From assembly GCA_001767435.1 (NCBI GenBank), contig MEKT01000147.1, forward strand, positions 25,281 through 89,280: 64,000 bases of DNA. The letters are read 5' to 3'. The notes below the pieces were generated by a model. It did not search any database. It was given only the letters and a program-made list of their open reading frames with translations, and was not told where the DNA came from. This document shows, one piece after another, positions 12,856-63,164 of the stretch. The number at the start of each line of letters is the position of its first letter. Position 1 is the stretch's first letter. Origin of the DNA: Acidobacteria bacterium RIFCSPLOWO2_02_FULL_65_29 (lineage in GTDB: Bacteria > Acidobacteriota > Vicinamibacteria > Vicinamibacterales > CAVVIG01). Both the position numbers and the translations under genes were made by a program.

Positions 12856-12856
12856 G

Positions 12857-27256: not shown

Positions 27257-27262
27257 AAGGAC

Positions 27263-31616: not shown

Positions 31617-31623
31617 GATCGGA

Positions 31624-31653: not shown

Positions 31654-31735
31654 CGAATTAGAGCCGCCAAGACCAGAAGCATTCAGGGTCTCACGTTCCA
31701 ATTCGACCCGCTGCTGGCGATCGATCAGACATCAG

Positions 31736-34477: not shown

Positions 34478-34507
34478 GGGCTCAGGGTCCACATGCTTGC
34501 ACTGCCG

Positions 34508-34600
34508 GCTGGGCCCCCCGCCTCCGCTCGCCGATAACGCACGCGAGCTTCGGCGAGGCTCGCCGAAGCGCCGGAGGCGCGAAGGCGGCACCCCCGCCGG
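34508..34600. repeat. Family B hairpin repeat upstream of kinase 2
   Basis: cccccgcctccgctcgcc… followed by a perfect 10-bp stem cttcggcgag-g-ctcgccgaag (34548-34568). Shares words with 27046-27103 and 25805-25860. Confidence 0.75.
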
Positions 34601-34649
34601 GTGTTGACGCTGATGCCTCGGCTCCCGCCTCGGCATAGCCGCCGCCGCT

Positions 34650-37088: not shown

Positions 37089-37096
37089 GTCATCAC

Positions 37097-37146
37097 CAGC
37101 TATCAGCTATCGGCGCTCAGCCCCGAGTCCCTAGTCCCTAGTCCCT
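37097..37146 (+). repeat. Two short heptamer arrays (CAGCTAT x2, AGTCCCT x3)
   Basis: cagctatcagctat at 37097-37110 and agtccct agtccct agtccct at 37126-37146, in the 56-nt spacer between two co-directional genes. Confidence 0.75.
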
Positions 37147-49283: not shown

Positions 49284-50219
49284 TTAGATTCGAGAATCCG
49301 CCCGCAGCGTGAGCACCGGACACCGCGCTTGTCGTACCACCTGATTGGTCGTCGATCCGAAGAGGGCCAGATCGACCTGGCCCCGGCCCCGTACTCCGAT
49401 GACGATGAGGTCGGCGTGCTCCTCGTCGGCCGCTCGAAGGATTTCGACGTGCGACTTTCCGTCAGTGACCCTCAGTGTCGGCATGCTCTTCGCGCGGGCC
49501 TCGTCCGGGATGAGCGAGTCGAGGCGCGCCAGCGCGCTGGCGTACTGATACCGCCGGAAGTCGGCGAGCGCGGCCGCCTGCGCCGGCGGCAGCCCCTCGA
49601 AGGTCGGACGCGGCGGCTCCTGCCATGGCCACTCGAGCGCGTGGACGACGACGAGCGCGGCGCTCGACTGCGCGGCGAGCGAAAACGCCGCCGCCAGGGC
49701 CGCCAGCGAGGACTCCGAAAAATCGACGGCGCAAAGGATCCGCGTGAACGGCAGCCGCGACGCCCCGTGCACGCGGGGAGGCACGGTCAGCACCGGGCAC
49801 GACGCCTTGCGCAGCACCTTCTCGGTGACCGATCCAATCAGCAAGCGCTCGAACCCGCTCGTGCCGTGCGTGCCCATCACGATCAGATCGGCGGGCAGCG
49901 TGGACGCGCGCTCGAGGATTCTGGCGGCCGGCGCTCCGGCATCGACCAGAACGTCCACGCCGATGCCCACGCCGGCCGCCGCGCCGAAGCAGGCGGAGGT
50001 CTGCTCCCGCAGGCGCGGGACGTCGGCATCGGGCCCCTGATCCTCTGGCACCGGCAAATCGTGTATCGGCGCCAGCCGCGGGTACACGTGCAGCGCGGTA
50101 ATGGCGGCGCGGTACCATCTGGACAGCACCAACGCGTGTTCGATCGCGTGACGCGAAGTATCCGAGAAATCGATCGGACAGAGAATGCGCGAGATCACGA
50201 ACTCACGCATGCTCGTCAT
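49284..50219 (-). CDS. Universal stress protein, tandem UspA domains
   Basis: 311 aa. Two USP units, each ending in the G-x2-G-x9-G(S/T) ATP motif region (…VMGTHGTSGFERLLIGSVTEKVLRKASCPVLTV… and …VIGVRGRGQVDLALFGSTTNQVVRQARCPVLTL…). Confidence 0.88.
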   Translation of the reverse strand: MTSMREFVISRILCPIDFSDTSRHAIEHALVLSRWYRAAITALHVYPRLAPIHDLPVPEDQGPDADVPRLREQTSACFGAAAGVGIGVDVLVDAGAPAARILERASTLPADLIVMGTHGTSGFERLLIGSVTEKVLRKASCPVLTVPPRVHGASRLPFTRILCAVDFSESSLAALAAAFSLAAQSSAALVVVHALEWPWQEPPRPTFEGLPPAQAAALADFRRYQYASALARLDSLIPDEARAKSMPTLRVTDGKSHVEILRAADEEHADLIVIGVRGRGQVDLALFGSTTNQVVRQARCPVLTLRADSRI

Positions 50220-50415
50220 GATCGGTCCGGCGGAACACGAGCAGCCGTGAGCCGCGCGACAGTTCCTCCGTCAAGCGGCCGGGATCCGGTCGCTGCACTT
50301 CCTCCCACTCGTCGTGCAACCCCATGATGGCGTTGGCGGCCGCCGCGACTTGGCCGAGGTCTGAACCTGGAAACCGGCGCCGCAGGATGGTTTCGATCTT
50401 CTGTCTGTCCACCAT
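50203..50415 (-). CDS. Small hypothetical protein (70 aa) upstream of the tandem USP
   Basis: Trimmed to MVDRQKIETILRRRFPGSDLGQVAAAANAIMGLHDEWEEV…. Preceded by gggggtggga. Overlaps the USP start by 17 nt. Confidence 0.45.
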   Translation of the reverse strand: MVDRQKIETILRRRFPGSDLGQVAAAANAIMGLHDEWEEVQRPDPGRLTEELSRGSRLLVFRRTDHDEHA

Positions 50416-50449: not shown

Positions 50450-50465
50450 TGCAAACGACCGGCCG
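50450..50465 (-). promoter_or_regulatory. Candidate sigma-54 (-24/-12) promoter for the sORF-USP operon
   Basis: Minus strand reads CGGCCGgtcgtTTGCA with exact GG-N10-GC spacing. About 24-nt leader to ATG 50415. Confidence 0.4.
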
Positions 50466-50509: not shown

Positions 50510-50525
50510 TGCCGAGTTCCCGGCA
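50510..50525. promoter_or_regulatory. 16-bp dyad TGCCG-N6-CGGCA (candidate regulator-binding site / UAS)
   Basis: TGCCGAGTTCCCGGCA, in the divergent spacer between the sORF-USP operon and the pentaheme cytochrome gene. One mismatch to the copy at 54933. Confidence 0.6.
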
Positions 50526-50553
50526 GGAGATCGCCTTTCAAATTCGAGCTTCG

Positions 50554-50569
50554 TGGTATATCGTTTGGT
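50554..50569 (+). promoter_or_regulatory. Weak sigma-54-like element upstream of the cytochrome gene
   Basis: TGGTATatcgtTTGGT. The -24 half is identical to the 48505 site, but the -12 half has GG instead of GC. Confidence 0.2.
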
Positions 50570-50623
50570 GACGCGATGGACGGCCGCGGCCCGAACGCCG
50601 CGCCGCAGAGGAGACACCGCACG

Positions 50624-51373
50624 ATGAATCGTCGAATAGGCGTGATCCTGTTTTGGGCGGCAACGGCGGTGGCGGCGCCGGCGTTTGCCCAACTCAATCA
50701 GAGCCGGTGCGCGGACTGCCATTACGCGAACCCCAGCTCGCCGCGCCAGGATCACCTCCAGGAATGGGACCGTTCACCGCATTCGCGCAACAACGTCGGG
50801 TGCGAGAAGTGCCACGGGGGCGACCCGGCCCAGTTCGAGCCGTTCCTCGCGCACCGCGGCATCCTGAATTCGTCGAACAAAGCCAGCCCGGTCAATCGTC
50901 GCAATCTTCCCACGACGTGCGGGGCGTGCCACGTCGGACCGTTCGTGGCGTTTCAAGACAGCCGCCACTATCAGCTGCTGCAATCGGGCGACGAGAAGGG
51001 CCCCAGCTGCTCCACCTGCCACGGCGACACCGACGGCCGGCTGCTCTCGCCAAAGGCGCTGGCTTCAGAGTGCAACCAATGCCATGGACCCGGCGAGCAG
51101 GTGCCACGGGCCGAACGCGCGCGCCTGGTGCGCGACCAGTACGATGGCCTCACCGTCGTGCGCGCGCAGATGAAACTCGCGCAGTCGCTCATCAGACGCG
51201 TGTCCGACAAGGGCCGGCGGGCCGAGTACGACGAGGCGCTGAACCAGGCTCAGGTGCCGCTGACGCGCGCGGTGAACGCCGGCCACAAGTTCGTCTACGA
51301 CGAACTGAGGGAATATCTCGGCGTCGCGCAGCAGCGCGTCGAGGCGCTGCTGAACAGACTCGCCAATCGCTGA
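50624..51373 (+). CDS. Pentaheme c-type cytochrome, secreted
   Basis: Trimmed to MNRRIGVILFWAATAVAAPAFA… Five CxxCH motifs: CADCH, CEKCH, CGACH, CSTCH and CNQCH. Confidence 0.85.
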   Translation: MNRRIGVILFWAATAVAAPAFAQLNQSRCADCHYANPSSPRQDHLQEWDRSPHSRNNVGCEKCHGGDPAQFEPFLAHRGILNSSNKASPVNRRNLPTTCGACHVGPFVAFQDSRHYQLLQSGDEKGPSCSTCHGDTDGRLLSPKALASECNQCHGPGEQVPRAERARLVRDQYDGLTVVRAQMKLAQSLIRRVSDKGRRAEYDEALNQAQVPLTRAVNAGHKFVYDELREYLGVAQQRVEALLNRLANR

Positions 51374-51386
51374 CGAAAACCCGGCA
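51371..51386. promoter_or_regulatory. 16-bp dyad, variant copy (TGACGAAAACCCGGCA)
   Basis: Overlaps the cytochrome stop codon. About 114 nt upstream of the predicted start site of the 51467 promoter. A weaker half-conserved copy, TCGCGGAGTTTCGGCA, lies at 51403-51418. Confidence 0.45.
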
Positions 51387-51466
51387 TCGACCCGAGCGCC
51401 CGTCGCGGAGTTTCGGCAGCAAGCGCCTCGGATGCTCAGCCTGGCAGTGGAGCCGAGTCTCACGCC

Positions 51467-51482
51467 TGGCATGCGCCATGCT
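51467..51482 (+). promoter_or_regulatory. Candidate sigma-54 (-24/-12) promoter for the USP-Yip1 operon
   Basis: TGGCATgcgccATGCT. Best -24 match in the window, with exact GG-N10-GC spacing. About 40-nt leader to ATG 51533. Confidence 0.5.
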
Positions 51483-51532
51483 GCAAGAGATGTCGGCCGT
51501 CGATAGCGTTCTCTTTTCGAGAGGGCTGTCTC

Positions 51533-52042
51533 ATGATCACGCTCAAGAACGTCCTCGTGGCGACCGACTTCGGCCGGGCATCGGAGACCGCGCTCGCGTA
51601 CGGCCGACAGTTCGCTCGGGCCTACGGCGCGAAACTCCACGTGCTCCACGTGGTGGAGAACGTGTTCACGGCGACCTTCGGAGTGGAGGGATACGTGACG
51701 AATGTCGCGGCCCTGCAGCGCGAGGTCGAGGAAGCCGCGCGCAAGCAGCTCGACGCCGTGGTCACCGAGGACGATCGGCGCGAGCTCGGCGCCACGGGGG
51801 TGACGCTCACGTCGGCCTCGCCCGCACTCGCGATCGTCTCGTACGCGAAGGACATCAAAGCCGATCTGATGATCGTCGGCACACACGGCCGCGGCGCGAT
51901 GGCGCATCTCATCATGGGCAGCGTCGCCGAGCGGGTCGTGCGGACGGCGCCGTGTCCGGTGCTCACCGTGCGGCACCCGGAGCACGAGTTCGTGCTGCCC
52001 GACGCGCTGCAGGTCGTGGAGCGGTCCGCCCAACAGCCGTAA
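51533..52042 (+). CDS. Universal stress protein (single UspA domain)
   Basis: 169 aa. MITLKNVLVATDFGRASETAL… and …LMIVGTHGRGAMAHLIMGSVAERVVRTAPCPVLTV…. Confidence 0.9.
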   Translation: MITLKNVLVATDFGRASETALAYGRQFARAYGAKLHVLHVVENVFTATFGVEGYVTNVAALQREVEEAARKQLDAVVTEDDRRELGATGVTLTSASPALAIVSYAKDIKADLMIVGTHGRGAMAHLIMGSVAERVVRTAPCPVLTVRHPEHEFVLPDALQVVERSAQQP

Positions 52043-52098
52043 GGACTCGTCCGCGACGAATACTGAGAACCAAGTCCGCTAGACGGAGGTGGCGCGTG

Positions 52099-52629
52099 AT
52101 GGTCTTCGCGTACCGCATCATGGGCGCCGCGATGCTCGACCAGGCGACCTTCGAGGAAATCGAGGGCGACCGAACGGCGACCGCTCAGGCGATGGGCGTC
52201 GTGCTGCTCGCGAGTCTCTCTGCGGGCATCGGGCTGGGCGGACTCGACGCCGGCCATCCCGTCTCGTTCGTGTTTGTGAGCGGTGCCGCCCTGCTCACGT
52301 GGGCCGTGTGGGCCCTCGTGACTTTCCAGGTGGGCGCGCGGCTCCTGCCCGAACCGCAGACCCGCGTCGATGTCGGCGAGCTGCTTCGCACGCTCGGCTT
52401 CTCGGCAGCGCCGGGTCTCCTGCAGGTCTTCGGCGTCGTACCCGGGTTGAGGGGACCGCTGTTCGCGTTCACGGCTGTCTGGATGCTGGCGTCGATGGTT
52501 GTCGCCGTGCGCCAGGCGCTCGACTACTCGACGATCGCCCGAGCATTCGCCGTGTGCGTCATCGGCTGGCTTCTGGCGTTCACAATCGCGGTGATTCTCG
52601 GACTCGTCTACGGCCCAACTCTTTCGTGA
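52099..52629 (+). CDS. Yip1-domain family membrane protein
   Basis: Extracted from the tail of ORF 50653..52629. ATG 52099 is preceded by GGAGGT. 176 aa, MVFAYRIMGAAMLDQATFEEIEGDRTATAQAMGVVLL… with 5 TM helices. Confidence 0.7.
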   Translation: MVFAYRIMGAAMLDQATFEEIEGDRTATAQAMGVVLLASLSAGIGLGGLDAGHPVSFVFVSGAALLTWAVWALVTFQVGARLLPEPQTRVDVGELLRTLGFSAAPGLLQVFGVVPGLRGPLFAFTAVWMLASMVVAVRQALDYSTIARAFAVCVIGWLLAFTIAVILGLVYGPTLS

Positions 52630-52636
52630 ACGGTCC

Positions 52637-52690
52637 CAAATCCTCAAGTCCTCACATCCTCAAATCCTCAAATCCTCAAATCCTCAAATC
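52637..52690 (+). repeat. Tandem octamer array AATCCTCA, about 7 units
   Basis: Reading: caaatcctca agtcctca catcctca aatcctca aatcctca aatcctca aatcc. Lies between convergent genes. Confidence 0.95.
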
Positions 52691-52700
52691 CGCGATCTAC

Positions 52701-53177
52701 CTAGGGCACTTGCATCGACGCGACGTGCTTCACGACGTTGCTGATGCGCACCTTCGCCAGTGTGTCCGAGGGATCGAGACCTCGGAAGATCGGCCCCCAC
52801 ACGGGCATCTCCCTCGTGCCGTGCGCCGGACTGGGCTCGCCTCCGTTGGTCACGAACGCCTCGATGCGCGCGGCCGGAAATGTGCCGGCGCTCTTGCGGG
52901 CGATGAGTGTCAGGTCGGCGGGAGGGACCTTCAGTGCAGCCGCCACCGGCCCGTGGCCCCTGCCGTCGCGGCCGTGGCAGGAGGCGCAGTAGAAATCGAA
53001 CAGATCCCGGCCCGTGATCGAATCGATGACGAGTGGCGGATTCCGCTGGCCTATGGTCTGGCCGGCAGAGCCGATGGCCGAGGCCCCTGTCAAGAATGTC
53101 AAGAATGTCAAGCATGTCAAGACTGTCAAGAATGCCGATGCTGTCAGCAACAGCGCGCCTTGCGCACGCAGGCCCAT
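52701..53177 (-). CDS. Monoheme class I c-type cytochrome, secreted
   Basis: 158 aa. One CASCH heme motif and a distal …REMPVWGP… Met ligand region. The hydrophobic core of the signal peptide (LTVLTCLTFLTFLT) is encoded by a 9-bp tandem repeat. Confidence 0.8.
   Translation of the reverse strand: MGLRAQGALLLTASAFLTVLTCLTFLTFLTGASAIGSAGQTIGQRNPPLVIDSITGRDLFDFYCASCHGRDGRGHGPVAAALKVPPADLTLIARKSAGTFPAARIEAFVTNGGEPSPAHGTREMPVWGPIFRGLDPSDTLAKVRISNVVKHVASMQVP
53089..53133 (-). repeat. In-frame 9-bp tandem repeat x5 (TTCTTGACA on the coding strand)
   Basis: Plus strand reads gtcaagaat gtcaagaat gtcaagcat gtcaagact gtcaagaat. The coding strand carries five TTGACA hexamers at a 9-nt period. Confidence 0.95.
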
Positions 53178-53225
53178 GATGTCTCTCCGTTCTCGTGTTG
53201 CGTCACCAGCTGAGGACCGTCCCTA

Positions 53226-54845
53226 TCAACCCATCTCCGCCGGCATCGCGGGCTCCCTCCTGGGCTCGGGTACCTCGGTCAACGTCGCCTCGGTGAGGAG
53301 GAGAACGCCGGCGACCGAGACGGCATTCTCGAGCGCGATTCGCACGACCTTGGTCGGGTCGATGATTCCGGCCTCGATGAGATCGACGTAGACGCCGCGG
53401 CTGGCGTCGAAGCCGTAGCCGCCGCTGCCGCCCATCATGCGATCGACGACGACGCCGCCGTCGGCGCCAGAGTTGGCGGCGATCTGCCGCGTCGGTATTT
53501 CGAGCGCGCGCCTGAGCATCAACGCACCCGTCCGCTCGTCGCCGGCCGACGCCGACGCCACGCGATCGACCGCCGCGATCGACCGAAGCAGCGCGAGGCC
53601 GCCGCCTGGCACGATGCCCTCGGCCATCGCCGCCCGGGTCGCGCTGATCGCGTCGTCAAACGCCTCGCGCCGGTTCTTCATCTCGGCTTCCGAGGGTGCG
53701 CCCACCCGAATCACGGCGACGCCGCCGGTCAGCTTCGCCAGCCGTTCCTGCAGCTTTTCGCGATCGTAATCGGACGTGGTCGTCTTCATCTGCTCGCGTA
53801 TCTCGTTGGCGCGCCCATCGATCGCCGCCTTGGTGCCGGCGCCGCCGACGATCGTCGTGGAATCCTTGTCGGCGATGACGCGTTTGGCCTGCCCAAGATC
53901 GGGCAGCGTCACGTTCGCCAGCTTGACGCCGATCTCCTCGGCGATCAATCGCCCGCCCGTCAGAATCGCGAGATCGTCCAGCATCGCCCGGCGACGATCG
54001 CCGAAACCGGGCGCCTTGACAGCCACACAGGGGAGCACGCCGCGGACCTTGTTCACCACGAGCGTGGCGAGTGCGTCGCCCTCGATGTCGTCGGCGACAA
54101 TCAGCAGCGCCTTGCCGCTCTTCGCGATTTGCTCGAGGAGAGGCAGCAAGTCCGTCATCGTGCCGATCTTCTTCTCGTAGATGAGGATGACCGGATCGTC
54201 GAGCACCGCCCGCATCTTCTCGGGCTCGGTGATGAAGTAGGGGGACAGGAAACCGCGGTCGATCCGCATGCCCTCGACGACCTCGACGGTCGTCTCGATG
54301 CCCTTGGCCTCCTCGACCGACGTCGTGCCCTCCGCACCGATCCGTTCCATGGCGTCGGCGACGATTTCGCCGATTGCCGTGTCGTTGTGCGCCGACACCG
54401 TGGCCACCTGCACGCGCTGCTTGTGATCGGCAACCGGGCGCGACAGCTCCCGGAGGCCCGCCACCACGGCCGCGAGCGCGCGATCGAGCCCGCGCTTGAG
54501 CTCGATGGCGCTCGCGCCCGCGGCGATGTTGCGCACGCCCTCGCCGAAGATCGACGTGGCGAGCAGCGTGGCGGTGGTCGTGCCGTCTCCGACGTTGTCG
54601 CCCGTGCGCTCGGCCGCCTCGCGAATCACCTGGGCGCCCAGGTTCTCCTCATGGTCGGCGAGCTCGAACTCTTTCGCGATCGTCACGCCGTCGTTGCAGA
54701 CGAGCGGCTTGCCCCACTTCTTCTCGATGAGGACGCATTTCGATTTCGGCCCGAGGGTGACGCGAACCGCGTCGGCCAGCGCGTTGGCGCCCTTCAGGAT
54801 CTTCTCGCGCGCGGCGGATTGAACGAGGAGTTGTTTGTGCGACAT
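53226..54845 (-). CDS. groEL: Chaperonin GroEL (Cpn60), no adjacent groES
   Basis: 539 aa. …[20 protein letters not shown]… and …[11 protein letters not shown]… signatures. The C-terminus lacks a GGM repeat tail. The upstream neighbour is a CBS gene rather than groES. Confidence 0.93.
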
Positions 54846-54857
54846 GATCCGCGCCTG

Positions 54858-54873
54858 TGCAAAGAGCTCGCCG
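54858..54873 (-). promoter_or_regulatory. Candidate sigma-54 (-24/-12) promoter for groEL
   Basis: Minus strand reads CGGCGAgctctTTGCA with exact GG-N10-GC spacing. The -12 C is 14 nt before the groEL ATG, there is no Shine-Dalgarno sequence, and the geometry is near-leaderless. Confidence 0.4.
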
Positions 54874-54932
54874 CCATCGCGTCAGCGCCACAGCGCCACC
54901 GCCGGAATCGCCGCGCCTCGAGCTGGATCCAC

Positions 54933-54948
54933 TGCCGAATTCCCGGCA
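54933..54948. promoter_or_regulatory. 16-bp dyad TGCCG-N6-CGGCA (candidate regulator-binding site / UAS)
   Basis: TGCCGAATTCCCGGCA. Centred about 93 nt upstream of the predicted groEL start site. Confidence 0.6.
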
Positions 54949-55042
54949 CCCGCTGGAGTGACTAAGGCCTTGGCCTTGGATTTCGGCCTCTTTTCGCGGG
55001 TCGCCCCGGGCACGACCCATGCGATAGCGAGGCGCGTGCGAC

Positions 55043-55495
55043 TCACCACGCCCGCTTGCCGGTGCGCTGCTTGCGGTGCGGCACACGATAATGAATGTCC
55101 GCCCGTATGGCCCGTTCCGGACGTCCGACGCCTCCCCCGACCAGTTCGAGCAGGTCCGAAATCGTCACGATACCCACGAGGCGCCGGCCATCGACGACCG
55201 GCAGGCAGCCGATCGTCCGGCCGCGCATGAGGTTGGCAGCCTTGCGAACCGTGGCGTCCGATTCGATCGTCGCGACGCGGGTCGTCATCAACTCGGCGAC
55301 GATGGCGCCGGCGCGAACTCGGGCGCCGCTCCGGCCGCCAGCGTCGCGGTCCGAGAGCACTCCGAGAATCTCCGTCCCGGCGGTGACGATAAGATGATGG
55401 ATGCGCTTGCGCCGCATCAGGTCCCATGCTTGGTCGGCCGGCATGGTGGCCGGCACGGTCTGCACACCCTCGGTCATGACTTCGGCAACTCTCAT
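55043..55495 (-). CDS. CBS-pair domain protein
   Basis: Trimmed to MRVAEVMTEGVQTVPATMPADQAWDLMRRKRIHHLIVT… with GGAGG 5 nt upstream. Second CBS motif …VAELMTTRVATIESDATVRKAANLMRGRTIGCLPVV…. Confidence 0.85.
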   Translation of the reverse strand: MRVAEVMTEGVQTVPATMPADQAWDLMRRKRIHHLIVTAGTEILGVLSDRDAGGRSGARVRAGAIVAELMTTRVATIESDATVRKAANLMRGRTIGCLPVVDGRRLVGIVTISDLLELVGGGVGRPERAIRADIHYRVPHRKQRTGKRAW

Positions 55496-55528
55496 AATGT
55501 CCTCCGGCGCGCGCAAGACCAGGTTTCA

Positions 55529-55544
55529 TACCGGAATCCCGGCG
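55529..55544. promoter_or_regulatory. Degenerate copy of the 16-bp dyad in the CBS/fdhA divergent spacer
   Basis: TACCGGAATCCCGGCG, 12 of 16 identical to the 54933 copy. Confidence 0.25.
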
Positions 55545-55597
55545 CCTTTCGATCGCTGTGCAAGGACGATACCCGCCGGCGGGTGGAAGGCGGCAGC

Positions 55598-58297
55598 ATG
55601 ATCGCCGCGCCCGTCGCCGGCGCCGCGCCCACGCTGTCGGTCGAGGTCAACGGTGCGCCCGACACACTTCCCGCCGGCGCAACGATTCTCGACGCGCTGC
55701 GCGCGGCGGGCGTGCACCTTCCGACCCTCTGCCACGACGAGCGGCTGACGCCGATCGGCGTGTGCCGGCTGTGCCTCGTACGCGTTCAGGGATGGGCGCG
55801 GGCAGTGCCCGCCTGCTCCACGCCGCTTCTCGACGGCATGCGCATCGAGACGAATGCTCGTGACCTGGAGGACGCGAGGCGTACGGCTCTGACGCTCCTC
55901 GCGCGGCGCTATCCGGCCGACGGCGTCGAGCGCGATCCGCACAAGGAGTTTCACCGCGCGATTCTCGAGCACGGCCTCGAACGCGAGTTGCTCCAAGCAT
56001 CTGCCCCGGGCCCGATCGATCGCTCGCACCCCTACATCGCCGTGGACATGTCGCGCTGCATCGACTGCTATCGCTGCGTCCGGATCTGCGACGAGGTGCA
56101 AGGGCAGTTCGTCTGGCACGTCCGCGATCGCGGGCTGGACACGCAAATCGTGCCCGACGGTCCGAGCCTGTTCGAGAGCTCGTGCGTCGGCTGTGGCGCG
56201 TGCGTGGACACGTGTCCGACCGGAGCGCTCGACGACGCCGCTCGGAGCCGCCTGGGCGCGGCGTCGGCCTGGACGAACACGACCTGTCCGTACTGCGGCG
56301 TCGGATGCGAAATGTCAGTCGGCGCGCGGGACGGCCGGATAGTCGCCGTCAAGCCGGTGCTGGATGCACCGGTGAACAAGGGCCATCTCTGCGTGAAAGG
56401 CCGGTACGCGTTCGAGTTCGTTGGCGCCGACGATCGCGTTCTGGATCCGATGATTCGCACCGGCGGCCAGTGGCGGTGCACCTCGTGGGACGAGGCCCTG
56501 ACGTTCGCAGCGGCGCGGCTTGGCGATCTGGTGGCCCGCCACGGACCCGACAGCGTCGGCGTGCTGGGATCGGCGCGCGCGACCAACGAGGAGAACTACC
56601 TCGCGCAGAAGTTCGCGCGCGTCGTGCTGGGCACCAACAACGTCGATTGCTGCGCGCGCGTCTGTCATGCGCCAAGCGCCGCGGCGCTGAAGCACTCGCT
56701 CGGCACAGGCCTCGGCACGAACTCGTTCGACGACATCGAAATCGCCAGGACGATCCTCGTCTGCGGCGCGAACCCGACGGAGAACCATCCGGTCGTCGGC
56801 GCCCGCATCAAGCAGGCGGTCCGGCGGGGCGCGGCGCTGATTGTCGTCGACCCGCGGCGAATCGAGCTGGCGTCCCTGGCAACCTGTCATCTCGCCGTGC
56901 GCCCCGGCACCAACGTCCCGCTCCTGAACGCGATGGCGCACGCGATCCTCGCCAAGGATCTGGTGGACCGGAGGTTCCTCGAAGCCCGCGTCGACGGTGT
57001 CGAGACGTTCGCCCGGAGCGTCGAGGCCTGGACGCCCGAGCGGGCCGCGGTCGTCTGCGGCGTCGACGCCGAACTGATTCGCCGCGCGGCCAGACTCTAC
57101 GCCACGAGGGCGCCCGCCATGAGCATCCACGGCCTGGGGCTCACCGAACACGTCCAGGGCACCGACGGCGTCACGCTGCTCATCAACCTCGCGCTCCTCA
57201 CGGGCAATATCGGCAAACCCGGCACCGGCATCAACCCGCTGCGCGGCCAGAACAACGTGCAGGGCGCGGCGCACATGGGCTGCGAACCGAACACGCTGCC
57301 AGGCGCCGCGTCGCCGAAGGACGGACGCGCCGTGTTCGAGCAGGCGTGGAAGCGCGAGATCCCCTCCACGCACGGACTCCACCTGCTGCACATGATGGAT
57401 GCGGCGCTCGACGGCCGCTTCAACGCGTTGTGGACGATCGGCTACGACGTGCTGCTCACCAACGCGAACGCCTCGGAGACCGTTCGCGCGATGCGCGCGC
57501 TCGATCTGGTCATCGTTCAGGACCTCTTCCTGACCGAGACCGCGCGCGAGGTGGGGTCGGTGTTCTTCCCCGCGTGCTCGTCGCTCGAAAAGGACGGCAC
57601 GTTCATGAATGCCGAACGGCGGATCCAGCGCGTGCGGCAGGTCGTCCGACCGCTCGGGCAATCGAGACCAGACTGGCGGATCATCTGCGACCTGGCGCGC
57701 GCCATGGGCCACGGTGAACTGTTCGATTTCCGCGAGCCGGAAGCGATCTGGAACGAGGTGCGCGCGCTCTGCGAGGGCGCGCGCGGCATGAGCTACGCGC
57801 GTCTCGATCGCGGGGGGCTGCAGTGGCCCTGCCCCTCCGAGGATCACCCCGGCACGAGCATCCTGCACCGAGACAGCTTCGCCGCCGGACCGCGCGCGGT
57901 GCTCCACGGCGTGGCCTACCAGCCGAGCCGGGAATCCACGGGGCCGGAGTACCCCTTCGTGCTCAACACCGGACGCTCGCTTTACCAGTTCAACGCGGGC
58001 ACGATGACCGGACGGACGCCGAACAACGCCCTCCGCCCCTCAGACCTGCTCGACATGTGTCCAGACGACGCGGATCGGCTCGGGCTGAGCGAGGGCGACA
58101 CCGCGCGCGTCATCAGCCGGTATGGCTCCGCGGTGCTGCCGGTCCGGCTGAACGCCGGCGTCCAGCCGGGACAGCTGTTCGCCACGTTTCACACGCCCAG
58201 CATCTTTCTGAACTCCACCACCGGATCCCACCGGGACGGCGCCACGGGCACGCCGGAGTACAAGGTGGCGGCGGTGCGCGTCGAACGGACCGCGTGA
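55598..58297 (+). CDS. fdhA: Formate dehydrogenase alpha subunit, Mo-bisPGD enzyme with NuoG-like N-terminal Fe-S domains (Cys type)
   Basis: Trimmed to MIAAPVAGAAPTLSVEVNG… with GGAAGG upstream. 2Fe-2S (…CHDERLTPIGVCRLCLV…), 4Fe-4S motifs (CIDCYRCVRIC, CVGCGACVDTCP), TTCPYCGVGCEM…KGHLCVKG, and active-site ARVCHAPS (Cys-His, no in-frame TGA). Confidence 0.88.
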   Translation: MIAAPVAGAAPTLSVEVNGAPDTLPAGATILDALRAAGVHLPTLCHDERLTPIGVCRLCLVRVQGWARAVPACSTPLLDGMRIETNARDLEDARRTALTLLARRYPADGVERDPHKEFHRAILEHGLERELLQASAPGPIDRSHPYIAVDMSRCIDCYRCVRICDEVQGQFVWHVRDRGLDTQIVPDGPSLFESSCVGCGACVDTCPTGALDDAARSRLGAASAWTNTTCPYCGVGCEMSVGARDGRIVAVKPVLDAPVNKGHLCVKGRYAFEFVGADDRVLDPMIRTGGQWRCTSWDEALTFAAARLGDLVARHGPDSVGVLGSARATNEENYLAQKFARVVLGTNNVDCCARVCHAPSAAALKHSLGTGLGTNSFDDIEIARTILVCGANPTENHPVVGARIKQAVRRGAALIVVDPRRIELASLATCHLAVRPGTNVPLLNAMAHAILAKDLVDRRFLEARVDGVETFARSVEAWTPERAAVVCGVDAELIRRAARLYATRAPAMSIHGLGLTEHVQGTDGVTLLINLALLTGNIGKPGTGINPLRGQNNVQGAAHMGCEPNTLPGAASPKDGRAVFEQAWKREIPSTHGLHLLHMMDAALDGRFNALWTIGYDVLLTNANASETVRAMRALDLVIVQDLFLTETAREVGSVFFPACSSLEKDGTFMNAERRIQRVRQVVRPLGQSRPDWRIICDLARAMGHGELFDFREPEAIWNEVRALCEGARGMSYARLDRGGLQWPCPSEDHPGTSILHRDSFAAGPRAVLHGVAYQPSRESTGPEYPFVLNTGRSLYQFNAGTMTGRTPNNALRPSDLLDMCPDDADRLGLSEGDTARVISRYGSAVLPVRLNAGVQPGQLFATFHTPSIFLNSTTGSHRDGATGTPEYKVAAVRVERTA

Positions 58298-60048
58298 AAT
58301 TCACCGCGCTCGCGCTCGACTACGACGGCACCATCGCCGTCGACGGCCGGTTCCATCCGGCCGTCCGTCAGGCGATCGGTGACGTGCGGCGGCAGGGCAT
58401 CGCGGTGGTGCTCGTCACGGGCCGCCGTCTGGCCGACCTGCATCAGGTGGCCGGCGATCTGACCTGTTTCGACGTCGTGGTCGGCGAGAACGGCGCCGTG
58501 CTCGAATTTCCGTCGAGCGGCCGGCACGTGACGATCGGGCACCGGCCGCACCCCGGCGTCGTCCGCGAGCTCCAACGGCGAGGCGTCGCGGTCGCAGCCG
58601 GAGAATCGATCATCGAGGCGGAGGCCGCGGCGGCGCCGATTGTCCTCGACGTGATTCGCACGCTCGAGCAGCCGCTCGTCCTTCTGTTCAACAGGAACCG
58701 GTTGATGATCCTGCCGCAGGCCATCGCGAAGTCCAGGGGACTGCGCGAAGCGCTGTTTGCGCTCCGGCTGTCCATTCACAACACCGTCGGCGTGGGTGAC
58801 GCCGAGAACGACCACGACCTGCTCGACGCGTGCGAAGTGGGCGTGGCGGTCGGCTGGGGCAGCCCAGCGCTTCGCGCCGTCGCGGACGAAGTCATCGATG
58901 GCGCCGGCCCCGAGGCCGTGGCCGAGTACATCAGGCGCGTCTCGAGGCAGACGCGGCTGTCGGCGGCGCAAATGGGCAGGCGCCGGCTGCTTGTCGGGCA
59001 CCAGCACAACGGCGACCCGGTGGAGCTGACCGTGCGAGGGAGGACGATTCTCATCGCCGGGGAGCCGGGCACGGGGAAATCGTGGCTCGCGGGACTCCTC
59101 TGCGAACAGTTGATTCTGCAGGGCTACTGCCTCTGCATCATCGATCCCGAGGGCGATTACCGCTCGCTCGAGGAGCTGCCGAGCGTGATCACGCTCGGGG
59201 GCGACGATCCGCCGCCGAGCGCGCGCGAGATTGCGCGCGCGCTGCGTCATCCCGACGTGAGCGTGATCGTGGACCTCTCAAGAGTCTCGCACCGCCAAAA
59301 GTTCCAGTACCTCACCACGCTGCTGCCGCTGCTCGTGAGCCTCAGACGCCGAACCGGCCTGCCCCACAAGATCCTCCTCGACGAGGCCCACTATTTCCTT
59401 GGAGGAGGCGACAGCGCGCAGCTCATCGATCCCGAGCTCGCCGGCTACATTCTCGTGACCTACAGGATCTCGGGACTCGATCCGTCGATCCGGACGACCA
59501 GCGACGCCGTCGTCATGGTGACCCACGAGACCGACCCGCTCGAGGCCGAGACGATTCGGAGCCTCTGCCGGCTCCCGGCGGGCGTGATCGTGCCGACCGA
59601 CGTGTTCCACAGTCTCGCGTTGAACGAGGTGGCGTTGCTGCCGGGGGTCGAAGAATCTCAGGGCCGGGTTCGGCGTTTTCAGCTCGCGCCCCGCCTCACC
59701 GCGCACGTTCGCCACCAATCCAAGTACCTCGACATGCCGGTGACCGAGGACCGGGCGTTCGTCTTCAGCGTTGGTGGACATTCCGGACCCCGCGTGAGGA
59801 CGCTCAAGGCGTTCATCGGGCTGCTCGCCGCTTTGCCCGCCGAAGAGATTGCGGCCCACCTTGGCCGCCACGATTTCTCGCGGTGGATCTTGGAGGTCTT
59901 CCGAGACGGTCCGCTGGCGGCGCACCTGCGGGGCATCGAGGACCGGGCCGACGGAGAGGAAACGCGCGACACCATCGAGGCGATCGCGCAGGCGATCCGG
60001 GCCCGGTACGAAGCCGTTGCCGAACCCGGAGCGCCGCTGCAGGATTGA
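58294..60048 (+). CDS. Fusion protein: HAD-IIB (Cof-type) phosphatase domain + HerA/DUF87-like P-loop ATPase + unassigned C-terminal domain
   Basis: GTG start overlaps the fdhA stop (GTGA). HAD motifs LDYDGT, VLVTGR and GVGDAENDHDLL. ATPase motifs IAGEPGTGKSW (Walker A), IIDPEGDY and ILLDEAHYF (Walker B). C-terminus …LGRHDFSRWILEVFRDGPLAAHL…. Confidence 0.75.
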   Translation: MKFTALALDYDGTIAVDGRFHPAVRQAIGDVRRQGIAVVLVTGRRLADLHQVAGDLTCFDVVVGENGAVLEFPSSGRHVTIGHRPHPGVVRELQRRGVAVAAGESIIEAEAAAAPIVLDVIRTLEQPLVLLFNRNRLMILPQAIAKSRGLREALFALRLSIHNTVGVGDAENDHDLLDACEVGVAVGWGSPALRAVADEVIDGAGPEAVAEYIRRVSRQTRLSAAQMGRRRLLVGHQHNGDPVELTVRGRTILIAGEPGTGKSWLAGLLCEQLILQGYCLCIIDPEGDYRSLEELPSVITLGGDDPPPSAREIARALRHPDVSVIVDLSRVSHRQKFQYLTTLLPLLVSLRRRTGLPHKILLDEAHYFLGGGDSAQLIDPELAGYILVTYRISGLDPSIRTTSDAVVMVTHETDPLEAETIRSLCRLPAGVIVPTDVFHSLALNEVALLPGVEESQGRVRRFQLAPRLTAHVRHQSKYLDMPVTEDRAFVFSVGGHSGPRVRTLKAFIGLLAALPAEEIAAHLGRHDFSRWILEVFRDGPLAAHLRGIEDRADGEETRDTIEAIAQAIRARYEAVAEPGAPLQD

Positions 60049-60071
60049 GAGATGGGGCTAGTGTCCCGTCA

Positions 60072-60752
60072 CTAGGCGCTCTTCGCGGCTGGACCGCTCT
60101 TGGGCGTTCCTTCAGTTCGCCCCGCGCGGGCCAGAAGCTGCCGCACCTCTTCGTCGGTCGTCTGGGCGAATTGCTGATACCAGAGGCCGACCGCCTGAAA
60201 CGGCTCGGGCCTCTGCAAACAGACGACCTCGTCGGCCATGCGGCCGAGCCGGTCGCAGGTGTCTCGAGCGCCCACGGGGACCGCCACGACGATCCGAGAT
60301 GGCTGCAGCCGCCGCAGCGCGATCACCGCCGCCTCCATGGTCGAACCGGTCGCCAGACCGTCATCGATCAGGATGACGAGGTGGCCGCGAACGGGAACGA
60401 GCGGGCGGCCCCCGCGAAAGAGCTGGTCGCGCCGATCCAACTCGAGGCGTTCGCGCACGGCAGTCTGCTGGACGAGCGTGCGCGGGATGCCCAAGTCCCG
60501 AATCAAATCCTCGCTCAGCACCTCGACGCCGCCCTCCGAGATCGCGCCCATCGCCAGCTCCTGGTGCCCCGGCACGCCGAGCTTGCGGACCAGAAACACG
60601 TCGAGCGGGACGCGGAGCTGTTCGGCCACTTCATACGCCACGGGCACGCCGCCGCGCGGCAAGGCGAGCACGACGACGTCGGCGCGCCCCGCGTAGGTCG
60701 CCAGGCGAACGGCCAGCTGGCGCCCGGCGTCGATTCGATCGTTGAAACGCAT
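60072..60752 (-). CDS. Phosphoribosyltransferase-family protein
   Basis: Trimmed to MRFNDRIDAGRQLAVRLATYAGRADVVVLALPRGGVPVAYEVA… PRPP-binding loop VILIDDGLATGSTM. Confidence 0.82.
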   Translation of the reverse strand: MRFNDRIDAGRQLAVRLATYAGRADVVVLALPRGGVPVAYEVAEQLRVPLDVFLVRKLGVPGHQELAMGAISEGGVEVLSEDLIRDLGIPRTLVQQTAVRERLELDRRDQLFRGGRPLVPVRGHLVILIDDGLATGSTMEAAVIALRRLQPSRIVVAVPVGARDTCDRLGRMADEVVCLQRPEPFQAVGLWYQQFAQTTDEEVRQLLARAGRTEGTPKSGPAAKSA

Positions 60753-60754
60753 CG

Positions 60755-61201
60755 TCAATCCGCTCCCGCGCGAGACGCAGCCCTCACAACACGGCGGCCC
60801 GGCCGCGGGTGTGTTTTCACCGCCCCGCGGCGCCGACGTGCGTAGTCCTGCAGTTCCCGCCGCGCCTTGTCGAAGACCTCGCGAAGGACGACGCGCGCAT
60901 CCTTGCGCGTCGCGTCGACCTCCGTGCGCTTGGTCGCTGCCAGCGCCTCGAGGCGCCGCTCGGTCGCGCGCAGCCGGGGCGCGTGGCTGACGACGATGTC
61001 CTCGCCGGGTACGCCCAAGTCGACACGCACCTGAAACCGGTTGCCGTGGAGCCGGTGGCGGTGCGGGATCTCCACGATCACCCGACAGGATATGATGTCG
61101 CGGCAATACGTAGCGAGCTTGGCCACGCGCCGGCGAATGTCGGCGTCGATCCACTCGGTAGACTTCAGATTGTGAAACTTGATCTCCAGGGGTGCCTGCA
61201 T
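60755..61201 (-). CDS. HPF/RaiA (S30AE)-like ribosome-associated protein
   Basis: Trimmed to MQAPLEIKFHNLKSTEWIDADIRRRVAKLATYCRDIISCRVIVEIPHRHRLHGNRFQVRVDLGVPGEDIVV…, the beta-alpha-beta-beta-beta-alpha YfiA-like pattern. Its stop lies 2 nt from the PRTase start. Confidence 0.65.
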   Translation of the reverse strand: MQAPLEIKFHNLKSTEWIDADIRRRVAKLATYCRDIISCRVIVEIPHRHRLHGNRFQVRVDLGVPGEDIVVSHAPRLRATERRLEALAATKRTEVDATRKDARVVLREVFDKARRELQDYARRRRGAVKTHPRPGRRVVRAASRAGAD

Positions 61202-61226
61202 CGATCGAACCTCGACGGTAGACAGA

Positions 61227-61242
61227 AGCACAAACGACGCCA
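61227..61242 (-). promoter_or_regulatory. Candidate sigma-54 (-24/-12) promoter for the HPF-PRTase operon
   Basis: Minus strand reads TGGCGTcgtttGTGCT with exact GG-N10-GC spacing. About 15-nt leader containing GAGG. Confidence 0.4.
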
Positions 61243-61282
61243 TCTCGAGCTCGGAACAGTGACCGGATCTGCGAGCAGGCTC

Positions 61283-61298
61283 TGCCGAATACCCGGCA
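61283..61298. promoter_or_regulatory. 16-bp dyad TGCCG-N6-CGGCA (candidate regulator-binding site / UAS)
   Basis: TGCCGAATACCCGGCA, in the divergent HPF / acs spacer. Centred about 75 nt upstream of the predicted HPF start site. Confidence 0.6.
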
Positions 61299-61379
61299 AA
61301 GTCTCCGGCGACTCGGCGGTCGATGTCACAATGGCCCACCGCGGACTGAGCAAGACCTTTGCAGGCAAGAGGATGGCTC

Positions 61380-63164
61380 ATGGCGTCTGACGCTTCTCTT
61401 CCAGCCTCGGGTACGCGCTGGCCCGCCATCACCAAACCGCGGAGCGATTGGAACGTCGTCCCCAACCTGGTGGACTACGACCGGACGCGCGCCGCGTTCT
61501 CGTGGGAGAACGCCCGCCGCGACCTCGATGGCCTGCCCGGCGGCCGTGGGTTGAATATCGCCCACGAGGCGGTGGACCGCCACGCCGCTGGCCGCCTCGC
61601 CACGCGCGTCGCCATCAGATGGCTGTCGAAAGACGGCCAGCGCAGGGAGCTCACCTACGCCGACCTGCGCGAGGGGACCAGCCGCTTCGCCAACGTGCTC
61701 CAGGCGCTCGGCATCGGCAACGGCGACATCGTGGCGGCGCTTGCCGGGCGCATTCCGGAGCTCTACATCGCGGCGCTCGGCACGATCAAGAACGGCAGCG
61801 TGTTCACGCCTCTCTTCTCCGCATTCGGCCCCGAGCCGATTCAGACTCGGATCAACATCGCCAAGGCCAGAGTGCTCGTGACCACCCCTGCCTTGTACCA
61901 GAAGAAAGTCGAAGCCCTGCGCGGATCCTTGCCAAGTCTCGAACACGTGTTGCTGGTCGGCGCTGGCGCATCGTTCGCTGGGACGCGCGACCTCGCCGCG
62001 CTCATGGCCGGAGCCGACAGCCAGTTCGTCATCCCGCCCACCGATCCGAACGACGTCGCGCTTCTGCACTTCACCAGCGGCACGACTGGCAAGCCCAAGG
62101 GGGCGGTCCACGTTCACGAGGCCGTCGTCGCGCACCACGCGACCGCCCGTTTCGCGCTCGATTTTCATGACGACGACATCTTCTGGTGCACGGCCGATCC
62201 GGGCTGGATCACCGGCACGTCCTACGGCATTATCGCGCCGCTGACGCACGGCCTGACGAGCATTGTCGATGAAGCGGACTTCGACGCCGAACGGTGGTAC
62301 ACGATTCTCGAGAAAGAGCGCGTCACGGTCTGGTACACCGCGCCGACGGCGATCCGCATGCTGATCAGGACGGGAGCGGCGGCGGCGCGAGCGCGTGATT
62401 TCCGATCGTTGCGCTTTCTGTCGAGCGTCGGCGAGCCCCTCAATCCCGAGGCCGTGCGCTGGGGCGTCGAGGCGTTTGGTCGTCCGTTCCACGACAACTG
62501 GTGGCAGACCGAGACAGGCGGCATCATGATCGCCAACTTCGCGGCCTCCGAGGTCAGGCCCGGTTCGATGGGGCGGCCGCTTCCGGGTATCGACGCCGCC
62601 ATCGTGCGGCGCGTCGACAATCGGATCGAGGTCATCGACGAGCCTGGCATCCAGGGCGAGCTCGCGCTCAAGCCGGGCTGGCCGTCGATGTTCCGCGCGT
62701 ATCTGTCCGACGACGTACGCTATCGCCGGTGCTTCGCGGACGGGTACTACCTGACCGGCGATCTGGCGCGGCGCGATTCGGACGGCTATTACTGGTTCGT
62801 CGGACGCGCCGACGACGTCATCAAGTCGTCTGGCCACCTCATCGGACCGTTCGAGGTCGAGAGCGTCCTTGTCGAACATCCGGCCGTGGCCGAAGCCGGC
62901 GTCATCGGCAAGCCGGATCCGATTGCGCTCGAAATCGTCAAGGCCTTCGTCGCGCTCAAGCCCGGGTTCGAACCGAGCGAGACCCTGCGCCGCGAGCTGC
63001 TGGCCTTCACGCGCGTCAGGCTGGGTGCAGCGGTCGCGCCGAAAGAACTGGACTTCCGTCCGAGCATTCCGAAAAACCGCGCGGGCAAGATCATGCGCCG
63101 GTTGCTCAAGGCGCGCGAGCTCGGGCTGCCCGAAGGCGACACGTCCACGCTGGAGGCGTCATGA
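61380..63164 (+). CDS. AMP-forming acyl-CoA synthetase, acetate--CoA ligase (AcsA-type)
   Basis: Trimmed to [11 protein letters not shown]… AMP-binding motifs [13 protein letters not shown], …WWQTETGG… and …[40 protein letters not shown]…. Confidence 0.85.

Follow-up and report, generated by a model that had tools for sequence, protein, structure and literature searches.

A palindromic site in the promoters of a Vicinamibacteria stress-gene island, probably an enhancer of sigma-54-dependent transcription

The gene island and its palindromic sites

The 64,000-nucleotide stretch of contig MEKT01000147.1 (Acidobacteria bacterium RIFCSPLOWO2_02_FULL_65_29, class Vicinamibacteria) analysed here, which we call the window, contains an island of genes encoding universal stress proteins (USPs), c-type cytochromes, a GroEL paralogue and an HPF-like protein. 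Promoter spacers of this island share a 16-bp inverted repeat, TGCCG-N6-CGGCA (5-N6-5), hereafter the dyad. A sequence-only reading of the window had drawn attention to the dyad and compared it with CRP/FNR-type sites and with the upstream activating sequences (UASs) of bacterial enhancer-binding proteins (bEBPs). The island genes, annotated with Pfam, NCBIfam and gene calls on three near-identical metagenome contigs (related contigs and loci carry an L number throughout), are as follows.

49284-50219, minus strand: tandem USP (USP311; Pfam Usp, 1.5e-61), in a proposed target operon with sORF70 (49284-50415)
50203-50415, minus strand: sORF70, a conserved 70-aa open reading frame before the tandem USP gene, overlapping its start (gene calls on L001)
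50624-51373, plus strand: multihaem cytochrome c, proposed target (Pfam, gene calls)
51533-52042, plus strand: USP169, proposed target (Pfam, gene calls)
52099-52629, plus strand: hyp176, a 176-aa hypothetical protein, proposed target (gene calls)
52701-53177, minus strand: small c-type cytochrome (Pfam), in a proposed target operon with groEL (52701-54845)
53226-54845, minus strand: GroEL paralogue, proposed target (Pfam; NCBIfam GroEL, 803 bits)
55043-55495, minus strand: CBS-pair protein (Pfam), no supported dyad in the window
55598-58297, plus strand: FdhA-like protein, a formate-dehydrogenase-alpha-like molybdoenzyme (Pfam), no supported dyad in the window
58294-60048, plus strand: fusion of a HAD phosphatase and a DUF87/HerA-like ATPase (HAD-ATPase; Pfam), no supported dyad in the window
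60072-60752, minus strand: phosphoribosyltransferase (PRTase; PF00156, Pfam Pribosyltran), in a proposed target operon with HPF (60072-61201)
60755-61201, minus strand: HPF-like protein, proposed target (PF02482, weak; translation checked)
61380-63164, plus strand: acs, AMP-forming acyl-CoA synthetase (Pfam), possible target of dyad D3

With TGCCGAATTCCCGGCA as the reference 16-mer, the copies of the dyad in the window are the following; their coordinates and sequences had all been given correctly in the sequence-only reading.

50510-50525: D1, TGCCGAGTTCCCGGCA, exact match, between the divergently oriented sORF70-USP311 (minus) and multihaem cytochrome c (plus) genes
54933-54948: D2, TGCCGAATTCCCGGCA, the consensus copy, exact match, centred 95.5 nt 5' of the start codon of the groEL paralogue
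61283-61298: D3, TGCCGAATACCCGGCA, exact match, in the divergent spacer between HPF-PRTase (minus) and acs (plus)
51371-51386: D4, TGACGAAAACCCGGCA, three mismatches, overlapping the stop codon of cytochrome c; the farther of two sites at the USP169 promoter
51403-51418: D4b, TCGCGGAGTTTCGGCA, a weak companion of D4 at a spacing of 32 bp, not above background when judged by sequence alone
55529-55544: a doubtful copy, TACCGGAATCCCGGCG, four mismatches, between the CBS gene (minus) and the FdhA-like gene (plus)

Exact TGCCG-N6-CGGCA occurs three times in the window (50510, 54933 and 61283), where 0.39 occurrences would be expected; in 100 dinucleotide-preserving shuffles the count never rose to three. 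Likewise, three sequences lie within one mismatch of the full 16-mer TGCCGAATTCCCGGCA, compared with none in 100 Markov shuffles. All three exact copies stand in promoter spacers of the one island, and window dyads lie 88-106 nt from the start codons. The three near-identical copies first noticed are thus real and non-random. No copy with three or fewer mismatches was found outside 50-62 kb of the window, in agreement with the earlier inspection by eye. When only the arms were scanned and one mismatch was allowed, 10 matches were obtained against 7.7 expected, which is no enrichment; the signal therefore resides in the near-identical copies. By count alone D4 is at chance level (0.9 copies with three mismatches expected per window), and so are the copies with four mismatches, including that at 55529 (9 against about 6 expected), and those with five.

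Alignment of the copies with 40-nt flanks revealed conservation over 17 bp only, C-TG(C/A)CGA...CCCGGCA, between unrelated flanks. This indicates a discrete site and no longer repeat, as had been proposed. To judge from its sequence, the 16-bp palindrome is a discrete, non-random regulatory DNA site. Two spacers needed relabelling: that around D2, previously described as groEL-cytochrome, separates the groEL start (54845, minus strand) from the 3' end of the CBS-domain gene, and that around D3 does hold a strong dyad as reported, with HPF and PRTase as two separate genes instead of one.

We consider it most improbable that the dyad is something other than a protein-binding site, whether a small RNA hairpin, a repetitive extragenic palindrome (REP)-like mobile repeat, or a chance product of G+C-rich DNA. 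The 5-bp G+C-rich stem with its 6-nt loop would be able to form a hairpin, and the G+C content of the genome is 67%. Against these possibilities, no shuffle reached the observed count; conservation ends within 17 bp, and the copies lie in promoter spacers and not at gene ends as a REP-like repeat might; the copies stand upstream of promoters with no T-tract after them, and an Rfam search of the island matched no family. Chance is further opposed by the retention of the motif before homologous genes in species that share 60-74% HAD-ATPase protein identity with the window, as described below.

Outside the island, the window carries lipopolysaccharide genes, purH, the nuo operon, an Lhr helicase gene, FdhD and others. 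Among these are, beside the nuo operon, a gene whose 576-aa product has a nitroreductase domain (20016-21746, minus strand), a Phd/PIN toxin-antitoxin pair (27166-27965), genes for two large Ser/Thr kinases with PD40 beta-propeller repeats (28173-34648) and one for an FHA-GAF-HD protein (35613-37106), all without a dyad.

Promoters beside the dyad in the window and in related genomes

Sigma-54 -24/-12 boxes were scored with a weighted matrix, with empirical P values against random 120-nt stretches; this replaced a crude consensus scan that was too permissive (about 50 matches in 64 kb). The gene-directed boxes in the window are listed here.

51467-51482, plus strand: TGGCATGCGCCATGCT, promoter of USP169 (and hyp176); 15.5 bits, P=0.001
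61227-61242, minus strand: TGGCGTCGTTTGTGCT, promoter of HPF-PRTase; 9.2 bits, P=0.022
54858-54873, minus strand: CGGCGAGCTCTTTGCA, upstream of groEL, 67.5 nt from D2; 9.0 bits, P=0.023; uncertain
50450-50465, minus strand: CGGCCGGTCGTTTGCA, upstream of sORF70-USP311; 8.1 bits, P=0.037
50554-50569, plus strand: TGGTATATCGTTTGGT, upstream of cytochrome c; 8.3 bits, P=0.032; with GG in place of GC at -12

Each of the four good dyads is accompanied by a box that ranks in the top 5% of random 120-nt stretches and is directed toward a flanking gene, and the five gene-directed tests in the window give a combined P of 6e-6. The USP169 box is the strongest in the island; D4 lies 88.5 nt upstream of it, and this is the only promoter in the window with two dyads. 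The HPF-PRTase box implies a 5' untranslated region of about 15 nt that contains GAGG. From dyad centre to box the distance varies between 36 and 89 nt, which places the dyads at about -62 to -115 from the inferred start site. Such variability is expected of an enhancer, unlike a fixed class II site. bEBPs usually use at least two sites, and their UASs typically lie 60-150 bp from the start site at variable distance. A simple sigma-70 scan of the island detected no sigma-70-like promoter, and no -10-like hexamer was present 19-23 nt 3' of the window dyads.

Two further elements were observed near window dyads. On the plus-strand side of D2, also at 67.5 nt, a box GGGCACGACCCATGCG (55008-55023, plus strand; 8.4 bits, P=0.03) faces the 3' end of the CBS gene in antisense direction, with a GGCC-rich hairpin followed by CTTTTCG between it and the dyad (54960-54995); this could mark an unannotated small transcript or be due to chance. 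GAGCA-N6-(T/C)TTGCA occurs near a dyad at three promoters (61348-61363 in the window, upstream of acs in L004 and upstream of USP311 in L068). With AG instead of GG, it is either a variant -24 element or a coincidence.

To compare relatives, we searched with the HAD-ATPase protein and retained one genome per species, which yielded 80 loci: about 34 Vicinamibacteria-like (G+C >62%) and 46 from Terriglobia, Acidiferrales and Bryobacterales. Gene order around the HAD-ATPase gene is poorly conserved, and the same families recur around it (USPs, CBS proteins, the GroEL paralogue, PRTase, FdhA and acs), which indicates that the island is a recurring functional unit. The HAD-ATPase itself, a 584-aa fusion of a HAD-IIB phosphatase and a DUF87/HerA-like ATPase with 49-74% identity across Acidobacteriota classes, is usually encoded by the first gene after the regulator's site and so appears to be a core regulon member of unknown function.

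In other Vicinamibacteria the dyad is kept as (T/C)GCCGG-N4-CCGGC(A/G), a 6-N4-6 palindrome, upstream of HAD-ATPase, USP, HPF, acs and hyp176 homologues (L004, L006, L008, L016, L023-L027, L030, L049 and L068). The closest relatives have the exact TGCCG-N6-CGGCA in the form TGCCGG-N4-CCGGCA, for example TGCCGGAAATCCGGCA in L068, TGCCGGAAAGCCGGCA in L004, TGCCGGAAACCCGGCA in L023 and TGCCGGATCCCCGGCA in L030, located 5' of HAD-ATPase, USP, hyp176 or acs homologues. This conservation upstream of homologous genes across Vicinamibacteria bears out the earlier view of a dimeric transcription-factor site for a stress regulon whose regulator is encoded outside the window. Matches to the relaxed pattern YGCCGG-N4-CCGGCR include many coding sequences of the form CGCCGG...CCGGCG, and only copies with an A/T-rich centre are informative. 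The apparent enrichment of TCGAG-N6-CTCGA and CTGCT-N5-AGCAG in Vicinamibacteria loci was traced to conserved coding sequence, for instance in the HAD-ATPase gene, and these candidates were discarded.

Sigma-54 boxes were found 3' of the dyads in these relatives as well, again at a distance of about 35-90 nt, at the HAD-ATPase gene in L008 (TGGCACGTCGTTGGCT) and L068 (TGGCACACCATTCGCT), at USP genes in L016 (TGGCACGCCGTTGGCT) and L024 (TGGCATTGCCCTTGCC), and in L030 (TGGCGCAGCGTTTGCA). The HPF orthologue in L023 has both a dyad, TGCCGGGTTTCCGGCA, and a box, TGGCATTTTCATTGCG. HAD-ATPase and CBS genes of relatives do carry dyads and sigma-54 promoters, and the CBS orthologues in L024-L027 have strong boxes (TGGCAGATGGTTTGCA). 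Of the 129 dyads that match the relaxed pattern in Vicinamibacteria-type loci, 30 have a box no more than 130 nt away, where about 8 would be expected (binomial p=8e-10). Conversely, a dyad is present in 39 of the 141 regions upstream of strong sigma-54 boxes and in 40 of 702 controls (p=9e-13). When every inverted repeat of 4 or 5 nt in the DNA preceding sigma-54 boxes was counted without bias, this listing ranked CCGG-N4-CCGG first (p=8e-12) and also recovered TGCCG-N6-CGGCA (p=5e-5), GCCG-N6-CGGC and TGCC-N8-GGCA; a second dyad family emerged from it, GGGG-N6-CCCC / GGAA-N2-TTCC.

The relatives also bear on the weaker window copies. Two dyads 32-33 bp apart precede the USP169 orthologues in L016 and L025-L027, matching the pair at 51371 and 51403. 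D4 and D4b are retained because of this conserved tandem: D4, unremarkable by count, is also backed by the strong box downstream, and D4b, which is background by sequence, is backed by the paired sites of orthologous USP promoters. The copy at 55529, previously listed as a degenerate member, was dropped, as its frequency is that of background and neither side has a sigma-54 box downstream of it.

We conclude that the dyad is probably a UAS, the dimer binding site of a sigma-54-dependent bEBP acting on stress and dormancy genes. This is favoured over a CRP/FNR site because sigma-54 boxes lie downstream, no sigma-70-like promoter was detected in the island and the distance varies. The two options originally offered are thereby separated: the bEBP option agrees with the boxes in the window and in relatives, and the CRP/FNR option fails on half-site and position.

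Under that second option, which we regard as quite unlikely, a cyclic-nucleotide- or oxygen-responsive dimer of the CRP/FNR family would bind the dyad and activate sigma-70 promoters by class I/II contacts. The 5-N6-5 geometry equals that of TGTGA-N6-TCACA, and this motif is enriched in the lower-G+C loci of Terriglobia, Acidiferrales and Bryobacterales (29 against 0.4 expected; examples among L035-L083 are L048 5672-9196 and 9900-10000, L039 7377 and L061 16004). There it lies 5' of HAD-ATPase, GroEL, PRTase and USP homologues, about 40-180 nt (often 80-90) from the start codon, comparable to the 88-106 nt of the window. The sites are often tandem, 22 bp apart, with the proximal one about 21 nt before a TAnnnT -10 element, a class II position. 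An FNR-like gene lies about 0.8 kb upstream of the HAD-ATPase gene in these loci, and a gene for a large PAS-bEBP is also just upstream. The FNR-like protein has an N-terminal C-x2-C-x8-C and a cysteine that aligns with Cys122 of FNR; its recognition helix reads TRETVTR (RE..R; compare RETVGR of E. coli CRP). In Vicinamibacteria, L068 has a CRP-family gene (12104-12793, minus strand) with an unusual recognition helix, TRSRVNFFMNKF, in an island rich in TGCCGG dyads.

In the window, however, the required distance holds no -10 hexamer and the island no sigma-70-like promoter, whereas the Terriglobia sites stand at the expected position; the dyad-promoter distance is variable and not fixed at -41.5; and sigma-54 boxes, which to our knowledge CRP-type factors cannot open, are significantly associated with the dyad. 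The window half-site, TGCCG(A/G), shares only the initial TG with TGTGA and matches neither TGTGA nor TTGAT. CRP-like genes, common in Terriglobia loci, occur in 1 of about 113 Vicinamibacteria-type loci (L068) and never beside the bEBP cluster described below; the L068 protein was rejected as the dyad binder since it is found at this single locus.

The Terriglobia loci nevertheless inform the bEBP reading. Apparent control of the homologous island by an FNR-type oxygen sensor suggests that the island is probably a low-oxygen response. Between Acidobacteriota classes, FNR/sigma-70 control of the same island has apparently been replaced by bEBP/sigma-54 control, as the sites and neighbouring genes would indicate. 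An unrelated REP-like 16-bp palindrome, ACAGGCTTCAGCCTGT, was also seen in several Terriglobia loci, in pairs 45-60 bp apart with conserved flanks (L048 19911-21140, L051, L054, L058, L060, L062, L073, L075 and L081).

Candidate regulators and a possible cascade

The earlier statement that the window encodes no candidate regulator held: its six-frame translation contains no bEBP hallmarks and likewise no sigma-54 (rpoN), no CRP/FNR homologue was found in it, and Pfam annotation gave no transcription factor among its main open reading frames. Genes for bEBPs, recognised by the GAFTGA motif, lie within or beside many related islands, and in Vicinamibacteria they are of two types. The first, bEBP(i), has the architecture REC + Sigma54_activat + HTH_8. 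The second, bEBP(ii), is Sigma54_activat + HTH_8, about 350 aa long, with no N-terminal sensory domain; directly after the AAA+ domain and before the helix-turn-helix (HTH) it carries the motif NACERIAQTC-x-CGTV-x-VGC, with cysteines spaced C-x7-C-x-C-x6-C. Its best NCBIfam match is NifA (TIGR01817), at 346 bits below the cut-off of 529, so it is not assigned to that family. The HTH of bEBP(i) is closest to the NifA structure 9qq6 (E=5e-6), and that of bEBP(ii) is weakly similar to FleQ and NtrC.

A search of metagenome contigs with the type-specific C-terminus of bEBP(ii) gave 80 loci, 56 of them analysable. In about 45 of the 56, a 92-aa NifU-like gene (nfu; Pfam NifU, 8.5e-24) precedes the bEBP(ii) gene, with a strong TGGCAC-N5-TTGCC box before the pair, and the bEBP(i) gene lies directly upstream, behind a REC-only gene and a PAS histidine kinase gene of divergent orientation. 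A tandem USP gene often follows bEBP(ii). Instances of the cluster are found in L084-L163 generally and at L120 3110-11300, where an Rrf2 gene and a sORF70 homologue are also present. The small sORF70 product is conserved and matches nothing in Pfam or NCBIfam, and a dyad and a sigma-54 box stand before its own gene; homologues of the product are encoded 2.5-3 kb 5' of the bEBP cluster on metagenome contigs L090, L093, L110, L120, L124, L126-L128, L131, L138, L139, L146 and L154.

In about 45 of the 56 loci the nfu promoter combines both dyad families. Two distal sites of the GGGGAATAATCCCC (GGAA) type stand about 21 bp apart, the nearer centred some 70-80 nt before the box, and a proximal dyad of the window type ends 9-12 nt before the box (TGCCGGAAATCCGGCT in L160, CGCCGGAAATCCGGTG in L084, CTCCGGGAATCCGGCG in L126). 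At other sigma-54 promoters on bEBP(ii) contigs, there were 11 instances of the CCGG type and a single one of the GGAA type. L023, which has bEBP(ii) with no bEBP(i) nearby, contains CCGG-type sites only; L007 and L020, with bEBP(i) or REC nearby, contain GGAA-type sites only. Putative promoters with TGGAACGCGCCATGCT proved to be false positives within bEBP(i) coding sequence. At the L068 CBS promoter, divergent from the CRP-family gene (12794-13028), a GGAA-type site, TGCGGAATATTTCGCA, accompanies a box, TGGCATCGTTGTTGCG; its presence in a TGCCGG-rich island shows that both dyad families coexist in one genome.

On this pattern of co-occurrence we lean, modestly, towards the short, NifA-like, cysteine-rich bEBP(ii) as the probable binder of the dyad; the reverse assignment, with bEBP(i) as the binder, is possible. 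It is unlikely, in our estimate, that the dyad binds a regulator of another kind, for example an Fe-S protein of the Rrf2 type or a repressor, with the activating bEBP bound elsewhere or acting from solution. The dyad before nfu-bEBP(ii), ending so close to the -24 box, is in a repressor-like position, and the degenerate copy just 3' of a weak box at the window CBS gene has a similar one; an Rrf2 gene is present in the L120 cluster. Yet Rrf2 genes are linked in only five loci and absent from the window, and Rrf2 was rejected as the binder. Moreover, the dyad is the sole conserved element at UAS distance at the target genes, and paired sites 32 bp apart resemble bEBP enhancers. The weak CBS box, GGGTATCGTCCTTGCA (55559-55574, minus strand), would put the 55529-55544 dyad at about +5 to +20.

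With a bEBP as the binder, the bound activator would oligomerise, contact sigma-54 RNA polymerase in the closed complex at a -24/-12 promoter 35-90 nt downstream and open the promoter using ATP. The island would thereby be switched on: the USPs, the hibernation factor and phosphoribosyltransferase, the GroEL paralogue, the c-type cytochromes and possibly acs. bEBP(ii) would be co-transcribed with the NifU-like Fe-S carrier from its own sigma-54 promoter, where the window-type dyad next to the -24 box suggests feedback. The distal GGGGAATAATCCCC-type sites are provisionally assigned to the NtrC-like bEBP(i), encoded just upstream beside the PAS histidine kinase. The order of events would run from the kinase to bEBP(i) at GGAA-type enhancers, and from there to nfu-bEBP(ii) at CCGG-type enhancers of the targets, with autofeedback. 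The signal is probably low oxygen or redox state, given the FNR-type control in Terriglobia, the cysteine and NifU features and the gene content. As a tentative model, which we think less likely than not, a two-tier sigma-54 cascade may govern a dormancy and low-oxygen regulon that also takes in the HAD-ATPase: the PAS kinase would phosphorylate bEBP(i), with its NifA-type HTH, and bEBP(ii) would be active only when its cluster or thiols are intact. With the Terriglobia counterpart under FNR-type [4Fe-4S]/sigma-70 control, both the regulator and the sigma factor of one regulon would then have been replaced within a phylum.

The module can be tied provisionally to the window's own organism. L112, which carries the kinase, bEBP(i), nfu and bEBP(ii), derives from JGI metagenome 3300025311, the same sample as L002, whose island is that of the window at 100% protein identity. 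L112 and the window have G+C contents of 66.5% and 66.7%, respectively. The proximal site of L112, CGCCGAATATCCGCCA, matches D3 at 13 of 16 positions, including the window-specific CCGAAT half-site, and an exact TGCCGACGACTCGGCA lies upstream of another of its sigma-54 boxes. A tetranucleotide comparison of L112 with the window did not discriminate at the length of this contig. Together these features are suggestive of a kinase-bEBP module in the window's genome.

Several points weigh against this account. Support for a bEBP is wholly in silico. Apart from that of USP169, the sigma-54 boxes in the window are weak (8-9 bits), and crude consensus matches are as frequent as about 50 per 64 kb. 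No credible box was found at acs, only the variant GAGCAAGACCTTTGCA (61348-61363). The groEL box implies a near-leaderless mRNA, and no conserved box was found beside the start codon of groEL orthologues, which are mostly inside operons. The cytochrome c box has no -12 GC, its L023 orthologue having TGGTATAGGCTTTGCG. Most window promoters have a single dyad. For some dyads in relatives the box is just 16-27 nt away, nearer than a classical UAS would allow; the protein bound there may therefore have a repressing role as well, or may be something other than a bEBP. The choice of bEBP(ii) over bEBP(i) depends on promoter logic and a handful of co-occurrences, and the suggestive link between L112 and the window consists of sample of origin, G+C content and half-site similarity only.

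Relation to known systems

Vicinamibacteria, Acidobacteriota that abound in soils and sediments, have been cultured in very few cases. We know of no description of their gene regulation, and our search of the literature on sigma-54 in Acidobacteria and Vicinamibacteria found nothing relevant. The dyad, its promoters and the candidate regulators offer a testable handle on how Vicinamibacteria enter stress or low-oxygen states; ribosome hibernation, USPs and a second chaperonin are predicted to depend on sigma-54. With the motif, regulons can be predicted in the many metagenome-assembled Vicinamibacteria genomes, and, with the island apparently under an FNR-type regulator in a sister class, the system offers a natural experiment in regulon rewiring.

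In gene content the island recalls the DosR/DevR regulon of Mycobacterium tuberculosis, which includes several USPs, an HPF-like protein, a CBS protein, a PRTase-domain protein and a chaperone, and in which numerous short operons, grouped in islands, likewise have a palindromic box in front. DosR, a NarL-type response regulator, acts at sigma-70 promoters, and its box is 20 bp long with a GGGAC/GTCCC core; we know of no homology of site or regulator between the two systems. The CRP/FNR sites of Terriglobia serve the same target families (HAD-ATPase, GroEL paralogue, PRTase and USP) and differ in being accompanied by a -10 element and an FNR-like gene, in contrast to the -24/-12 boxes found with the window sites.

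The NifA UAS has the consensus TGT-N10-ACA. It shares with the window dyad a 16-bp outer frame, TGN-N10-NCA; the third base of the dyad half-site is C (or G), not T. bEBP(ii) lacks a GAF domain, no nif genes are involved, and the regulon is one of stress and dormancy. NifA of alpha- and beta-proteobacteria is reported to have two cysteine pairs within and just after the AAA+ domain that serve redox sensing (PMC10590331). The cysteines of bEBP(ii), at and just after the end of the AAA+ domain, resemble those of redox-sensitive NifA.

The closest described analogue appears to be the NmpR regulon of Myxococcus xanthus. NmpR is an NtrC-like response regulator that binds pairs of GCGCA-N5-TGCGC upstream of sigma-54 promoters under hypoxia, and its targets include a CBS-domain gene, a USP gene, cbb3 oxidase genes and its own signalling genes (PMC11841059). 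The two systems are alike in their dyad-symmetric sites at sigma-54 promoters, often paired for NmpR and in the window paired at USP169, in the presence of CBS proteins, USPs and respiratory cytochromes, and in low-oxygen induction and autoregulation, which for the window system are predictions. They differ in phylum, in the site (15 bp GCGCA-N5-TGCGC against 16 bp TGCCG-N6-CGGCA), in the signalling chain (a protoglobin kinase phosphorelay against the putative PAS kinase, NtrC-like bEBP and NifU-linked cysteine-rich bEBP), and in HPF, GroEL and PRTase, which are not among the reported NmpR targets. The type of site proposed here, a bEBP enhancer with sigma-54 promoters, is therefore already known; the special interest of this system would lie in the cascade through a NifU-linked, cysteine-rich bEBP and in the apparent exchange of FNR/sigma-70 for bEBP/sigma-54 control.

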